In this document: piece after piece, positions 23,440 to 23,535 of the stretch | How the letters are laid out: each line of letters opens with the position of its first letter | Numbering within the stretch: position 1 is the stretch's first letter | Origin: Escherichia coli | GTDB lineage: Bacteria > Pseudomonadota > Gammaproteobacteria > Enterobacterales > Enterobacteriaceae | Assembly: GCF_003334765.1 (NCBI RefSeq) | Contig: NZ_QOWT01000004.1 | Length of the DNA stretch: 64,000 nucleotides | Direction: 5' to 3' (one strand) | Position numbers and translations under genes: made by a program | The notes under the pieces: generated by a model | What the model saw: the letters and a program-made list of their open reading frames with translations, nothing else | Told to the model about the DNA's origin: nothing | The model's database searches: none

Positions 23440-23455
23440 TGCAAAGCGGATGCCA
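23440..23455 (-). promoter_or_regulatory. Sigma-54-type promoter element (TGGCAT-N5-TTGCA on minus strand) upstream of rutA
   Basis: Plus-strand tgcaaagcggatgcca reads as TGGCATCCGCTTTGCA on the rutA strand, about 30 nt upstream of the rutA start. Confidence 0.65.
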
Positions 23456-23519
23456 GTTTTTAAAAAGTTAATGTTATTAATCTGTTAACATTACGTTATC
23501 TAAAATATCTGGTAAAAAG

Positions 23520-23535
23520 TGGACTAAACGGTCAA
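23520..23535. promoter_or_regulatory. RutR operator-like palindrome (TGGACTAAACGGTCAA) in rutA-rutR intergenic region
   Basis: 13/16 match to recalled RutR box TTGACCAnnTGGTCAA. Confidence 0.55.

Follow-up and report, generated by a model that had tools for sequence, protein, structure and literature searches.

The window, that is, the whole stretch of 64,000 nucleotides of Escherichia coli DNA that was analysed (NCBI RefSeq assembly GCF_003334765.1, contig NZ_QOWT01000004.1), carries the divergent control region of the pyrimidine-utilisation genes, a region already known and characterised in this species. On one side of it lies rutA (22263..23354, minus strand), annotated by RefSeq/PGAP as a protein of 363 amino acids beginning with MKIGVF, and on the other side lies rutR (23642..24280, plus strand), annotated by RefSeq as a TetR-family regulator and adjoined, in the same annotation, by putA. 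The two divergent genes are separated by a gap of 287 bp, which contains both a sigma-54 promoter motif and a box for the regulator RutR. Every base of the intergenic region is the same as in E. coli K-12 MG1655, and consequently the experiments published on K-12 are directly applicable; positions of the window are converted into positions of NC_000913.3 by adding 1,050,600. In other words, the rutA promoter and RutR operator of K-12, with the same sequence, the same sigma-54 motif and the same RutR box, are the very object under study, and only the annotated start of rutA differs between the records (382 amino acids in K-12, 363 in PGAP). Both elements were published between 2000 and 2015 and their recognition adds nothing new on E. 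coli; what it does show is that a first-stage reader can pick a real regulatory region out of raw sequence. The 401 bases round the two sites were found in 5,420 of 5,426 complete E. coli genomes. In a few E. coli records the rutA-rutR region lies on replicons labelled as plasmids (4-7 places).

The sigma-54 element of rutA is a 17-mer, CTGGCATCCGCTTTGCA, located at 23456..23440 on the minus strand and identified by its sequence, by a matrix, by a ChIP-seq match and by conservation. Read on the rutA strand, TGGCAT-CCGCT-TTGCA (TGGCATCCGCTTTGCA, 23455..23440, minus strand) conforms to TGGCAC-N5-TTGCW and is directed towards the gene, with its GG (23454-23453) and GC (23442-23441) doublets ten bases apart, the canonical spacing of -24/-12 elements. 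The pattern TGGCA-N6-TTGCA occurs once in the 64-kb window, where 0.44 occurrences are expected. When the window was scored with a sigma-54 matrix made from 41 published intergenic sites in a leave-one-out fashion (the rutA site being excluded), the rutA site emerged as the top match. Its score, 14.4 bits, falls inside the span covered by the training sites (8.7-21.9 bits), but random sequence matched in size and composition would contain about 1.9 matches as high or higher; over 64 kb, the matrix score taken singly is not significant. As an exact string, CTGGCATCCGCTTTGCA is the sigma-54 ChIP-seq site OS10 assigned to rutA (Bonocora 2015), and genomic SELEX with the RpoN holoenzyme gives a peak in the rutA/rutR spacer (Shimada 2021).

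Further upstream of rutA, the RutR box TGGACTAAACGGTCAA occupies 23520..23535, a 16-mer defined by pattern, ChIP-chip match, gel shift, mutants and conservation. Relative to the predicted rutA start its centre is at about -98.5, and the box follows closely after the transcription start of rutR. Set against the published description of the RutR box (Shimada 2008), TTGACCAnnTGGTCAA, a palindrome of 16 bp in which position 4 is A and position 13 is T, it has three mismatches, matching at 11 of the 14 specified positions, and both key bases, A4 and T13, are present. When up to three mismatches are allowed, the window contains a single occurrence of the pattern, where 2.9 are expected, so that the match by itself, over 64 kb, is not significant. 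Also in this case the site has been the subject of direct experiments: TGGACTAAACGGTCAA is exactly the RutR ChIP-chip site of rutA, reported with the same 11/14 agreement to the consensus, and is also a gel-shift site (Shimada 2008). In gel shift, RutR binds the rutA-rutR fragment with a KD of 8.6 nM and is freed from it by uracil, with half-inhibition at about 9 nM (Nguyen Ple 2010). Moreover, four operator-constitutive substitutions in the box abolish the uracil-sensitive autoregulation of rutR, and the same work has the box shortly after the rutR start and, on the rutA side, upstream of the sigma-54 promoter (Nguyen Le Minh 2015). Starting from this position of the box and from the comparison of alleles, a candidate -10 hexamer of rutR, TAAAAT, may be proposed at 23501..23506 (plus strand); it is intact in the most divergent E. 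coli allele, where the flanking bases vary. A different -10, TGgTAAAAA at 23510-23518, was set aside, being changed in a natural E. coli allele, and a simple sigma-70 promoter scan of 23300-23700 gave no site above thresholds and did not place the rutR promoter.

As neither motif is significant singly over 64 kb, the case for this region rests on context, conservation and published experiments. As to context, the joint expectation for both motifs to fall, correctly oriented, in one divergent gap of 287 bp is roughly 1e-5. As to conservation, a scan for RutA with one genome per species yielded 80 loci, 79 of them with usable upstream sequence, from Escherichia, Leclercia, Raoultella, Klebsiella, Enterobacter, Kosakonia, Pantoea, Erwinia, Yersinia, Serratia, Rahnella and others. 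All 79 usable loci have the sigma-54 motif, kept as TGGCA-N6-TTGC, with a RutR box further upstream, and 76 of the 80 encode a RutR homologue divergently, upstream of rutA. The distance from the centre of the box to C(-12) is 85-88 bp in Enterobacteriaceae and mostly 94-97 bp in Erwiniaceae, Yersiniaceae and their relatives, that is, about one helical turn more. A third distance class, of about 76 bp, proved to be an artefact, a second, promoter-proximal box having been picked. In Erwiniaceae, Yersiniaceae and relatives two RutR-like boxes stand in tandem, the weaker of them 20 bp nearer to the promoter (for example in loci L029, L065 and L072); it is the enhancer-proximal one that lies about 9-10 bp further from the sigma-54 element than the box of Enterobacteriaceae. 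Within E. coli, the exact 30-mer round the sigma-54 motif is present in 4,691 of 5,426 genomes and that round the RutR box in 5,207 of 5,426. The most divergent allele sampled carries 15 substitutions in 401 bp and none of them falls in the sigma-54 motif, in the RutR box or in the two NtrC-like dyads described below. The two observations of the preliminary description, a sigma-54-type element upstream of rutA and a RutR-box-like palindrome matching at 13 of 16 positions, are thus both borne out: the former is present at the place indicated, is an exact OS10 match and is conserved in 79 of 79 loci, and the latter count corresponds to the 11 of 14 specified positions plus two Ns.

Activation of a sigma-54 promoter by NtrC was likewise part of that description, together with repression by RutR. 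Candidate NtrC sites were found by eye and by conservation, after a search of the intergenic region with the NtrC consensus TGCACCAnnnTGGTGCA, a 17-bp dyad of which two or more copies usually lie on one helical face, had given no match with up to three mismatches. The proximal NtrC-like dyad, TGCACATAAAACATGCA, at 23542..23558 (centre about -121), has five mismatches to the consensus, and the distal one, TGCGCGATGAGAGTGCA, at 23563..23579 (centre about -142), has four; their centres are 21 bp apart and the TGC-N11-GCA ends are kept in both. The double dyad TGC-N11-GCA-N4-TGC-N11-GCA has a single occurrence in the window, against 0.03 expected, and the block TGCcTG.ttt.tGTGCA is the best-conserved stretch upstream of the RutR box among the 79 loci. 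On these grounds we infer that the two weak dyads may constitute the NtrC enhancer of rutA. NtrC ChIP-seq in nitrogen-starved cells shows a 94-fold peak at ycdMLKJIHG, which corresponds to rutA-G (Brown 2014), and the onset of nitrogen starvation triggers an NtrC-dependent induction of the rut operon (literature including Kremer 2024); in NtrC genomic SELEX with a 40% cut-off the rutA/rutR spacer is not listed. The ChIP-seq window, at 23398-23478 of our coordinates, lies over the promoter and not over the dyads. As the windows lie over the promoter likewise for glnK, glnH, ddpX, astC and yeaG, the loci compared, these data do not resolve enhancer sites. Taken together, the sigma-54 and NtrC ChIP-seq, the RpoN SELEX and the RutR binding data support the earlier claim of NtrC/sigma-54 activation and RutR repression, the repression of rutA itself being stated or proposed in the literature.

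Between promoter and box, the AT-rich spacer contains a putative IHF site, TAACAGATTAATA, at 23487..23475 on the minus strand (centre -52), with one mismatch to YAANNNNTTGATW, at a conserved C. Of the 79 spacers scanned, 69 have their best IHF-like match at -52 or -55. Perfect matches to WATCAANNNNTTR occur in nine other loci, belonging to Yersinia, Serratia, Rahnella, Chimaeribacter and one Pantoea, eight of them at -52 and one at -55; taken individually, the IHF-like matches are not significant against shuffled sequence.

The transcription start of rutA is predicted at 23429 (minus strand), 12 nt downstream of C(-12), which is position 1,074,029 of NC_000913.3. The start rule of Bonocora 2015, the centre of the motif plus 19 bp, leads to the same nucleotide, at 18 nt from the K-12 start codon, and the same work marks the rutA promoter as "predicted" in EcoCyc. 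A literature search for a mapped rutA start found none, and the sources consulted all give the start as predicted. As for translation, two start codons are in use. The legacy K-12 start is the ATG at 23411 (382 amino acids, MQDAAPR...), 30 nt from the GC element, whereas the PGAP start is the ATG at 23354 (363 amino acids), at 87 nt from the GC element and with a leader of about 75 nt. A Shine-Dalgarno sequence, GAGAGG at 23361..23366 (minus strand), serves the start at 23354; in almost every related locus GAGG precedes ATGAAAATTGG by 6-7 nt, with few variants (such as AAGG and GGGG). All RutA homologues align with the short form from its first residue onwards, the in-frame N-terminal extension to 23411 is not conserved, and in one E. 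coli strain the short start is preceded, at 18 nt, by an in-frame stop. The alignment of homologues, the conserved Shine-Dalgarno, the lack of conservation of the extension and the in-frame stop all favour 23354; to judge from these comparisons, the legacy K-12 start codon is probably wrong and placed 57 nt too far upstream. Consequently, the distance of about 30 nt between promoter element and start codon given in the preliminary description is correct for the legacy start but not for the conserved one, where it becomes 87 nt.

Published experiments have shown that the sigma-54 holoenzyme, NtrC and RutR occupy this region, that uracil frees RutR and that the box controls rutR. On this basis the following mechanism can be envisaged. 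Transcription of rutABCDEFG would start near 23429, at a closed complex held on the -24/-12 element, which phosphorylated NtrC, bound to the dyads at 23542-23558 and 23563-23579, would reach via DNA looping, probably with the aid of the IHF-like site or of an AT-rich bend centred at -52. RutR, at about -98, would sit six bp from the proximal dyad and between enhancer and promoter. From this position the box cannot keep RNA polymerase off the sigma-54 promoter, so that any effect of RutR on rutA must be exerted on the activator or on the DNA loop. Being near the dyad and far from the promoter, it would most likely cut rutA transcription by hindering NtrC binding, oligomerisation or looping, and the same RutR dimer would block the rutR promoter, whose start is just upstream of the box. 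The combination of NtrC and RutR control implies that full rut expression would need both nitrogen limitation and uracil. Taken whole, this picture of sigma-54, NtrC and RutR control, which joins binding data to a predicted start and to a putative looping and anti-activation, is in our judgement very likely to be right; within it, the anti-activation by RutR and the role of IHF are the parts that we infer.

The architecture recalls known systems. At glnAp2, the textbook NtrC/sigma-54 promoter, a -24/-12 element is served by two activator dyads that share one face of the helix and lie about 100-150 bp upstream, and activation proceeds by looping and ATP hydrolysis. The rutA promoter likewise has a -24/-12 element and two upstream candidate dyads; by comparison, its dyads are far weaker, an IHF-like site lies in the loop and the site of a TetR-family repressor lies between the candidate enhancer and the promoter. 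In the TetR/tetO system, the palindromic operator is situated between the regulator gene and a divergent target operon; a TetR-family dimer binds it and is freed by its ligand. The RutR dimer, the palindrome between rutR and the divergent rut operon and the release by a ligand follow the same scheme. Unlike tetO, the operator lies, on the rutA side, far upstream of a sigma-54 promoter and overlaps no sigma-70 promoter, which excludes polymerase occlusion there. A further term of comparison is the RutR box of carAB P1, which shares with the present one the same protein, the same 16-bp consensus and a comparable nanomolar, uracil-sensitive binding; the carAB box, however, has its centre at -184.5 and acts positively, presumably by counteracting PepA, whereas the rutA/rutR box has a negative effect, shown for rutR and proposed for rutA, and would serve two divergent promoters.

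Among the alternatives, the one that survives best is that the RutR box serves mainly or only the autoregulation of rutR, rutA being left to NtrC and sigma-54 with a small or indirect effect of RutR. The operator-constitutive test was in fact performed with a rutR-lacZ fusion only, and the role of RutR at rutA is called "proposed" (Nguyen Le Minh 2015). In addition, deletion of rutR or acetylation of RutR leaves rutA mRNA unchanged in exponential, nitrogen-replete cells (Kremer 2024). The latter experiment, however, was run where NtrC is inactive and the promoter presumably silent, a situation in which no rise of rutA mRNA is expected; nor is its outcome a positive sign of repression. Furthermore, repression of both wings by RutR is stated in the literature (Kremer 2024; Nguyen Le Minh 2015), and in 79 loci the place of the box beside the NtrC-like dyads is fixed and its distance from the sigma-54 element varies little and is helically phased. 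We therefore regard a box devoted to rutR as a rather improbable reading, and a repression of rutA through the box, as proposed in the literature, as the preferred one.

A second alternative concerns the promoter and not the operator: the sigma-54 element could be a non-productive or purely repressive holoenzyme site, with rutA transcribed from another promoter. Sigma-54 binding sites are not necessarily promoters (Bonocora 2015), repressive RpoN promoters have been proposed (Shimada 2021), and the rutA start is a predicted one. The element is nevertheless correctly oriented and conserved in 79 of 79 loci together with upstream dyads, NtrC occupies the region and rut induction depends on NtrC, while no sigma-70-like promoter is detected in the region, all of which makes this reading highly improbable and a productive, NtrC-activated sigma-54 promoter the favoured one. 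Lastly, that the sigma-54 and RutR motifs are chance matches devoid of function could be argued from the fact that neither is statistically exceptional alone over 64 kb, but it is scarcely credible, since both are experimentally bound sites with an exact match, so that published binding data already refute it, and both have been preserved in the Enterobacterales loci as well as within E. coli.

Downstream of the predicted start, cross-genus alignments and pair counts delineate a conserved element in the rutA leader, from +2 to +39 (23391..23428, minus strand). In the proposed structure, 23428-23423 pair with 23396-23391 to form a stem that encloses two GGA motifs, one at 23415-23413 and the other at 23406-23404, in the loop of a hairpin spanning 23410-23400, whose stem of 3-4 bp is of the form UGCA-GGA-UGCA. 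Over 54 sequences, 79.7% of the cells are paired for the proposed pairs as against 8-44% with slid partners, a count which is suggestive only, as the structure was derived from the same sequences. One of the pairs switches, being G-C in 33 sequences and A-U in 7. The element is absent from lineages with a short leader, for example some Enterobacter, Buttiauxella and Yersinia. When 23300-23700 was scanned against Rfam with a permissive E-value, one meaningless match was all that came up, leaving the leader without an Rfam family, and nothing relevant emerged from a literature search on CsrA and rutA. Two other explanations of this stretch were discarded. That the leader is a small upstream reading frame (MQDAAPR...) is countered by the replacement of its ATG in Pantoea and other genera and by a frame that is not maintained; and a terminator-like match at 23392-23408 (plus strand), the sole one in 23300-23700, is the complement of the leader hairpin and is not read here as a terminator.

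The GGA stem resembles CsrA-type binding sites and may be a candidate site of post-transcriptional control. A possibility is that RutR works as an anti-activator, helically phased beside weak NtrC sites, and that the conserved GGA leader stem provides a site for post-transcriptional control. We put this twofold proposal forward tentatively, considering it possible though unlikely as a whole. Neither the anti-activation by RutR nor the leader stem of rutA is described in the literature covered. If the proposal held true, control at the leader, for example by a CsrA-type protein, would tie pyrimidine breakdown to a further signal. In any case, the candidate NtrC and IHF sites and the leader element are testable by-products of the cross-genus comparison.

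Some features elsewhere in the window deserve mention. A second published sigma-54 ChIP-seq site, OA02 (CCGGCATGAACAATGCG), is located at 17847-17863 (plus strand), just downstream of rutG; it faces away from the nearby genes and adjoins REP-like palindromic sequence. Apart from the repeat described below, Rfam matches over the gathering score are those to the cspA thermoregulator, naRNA4, Ysr251, ES056 and ES036, the five lying at 705-1127, 11810-11888, 35259-35452, 51387-51478 and 61573-61615. Finally, positions 45096-45787 are occupied by a perfect tandem repeat of 181 bp in 3.4 copies, which starts inside the 3′ end of tRNA-Ser(GGA). Of the 181-bp units, three match Rfam RtT with scores barely over the gathering threshold; units of this type are annotated as RtT sRNA by RefSeq in other E. 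coli, and their copy number varies by strain.
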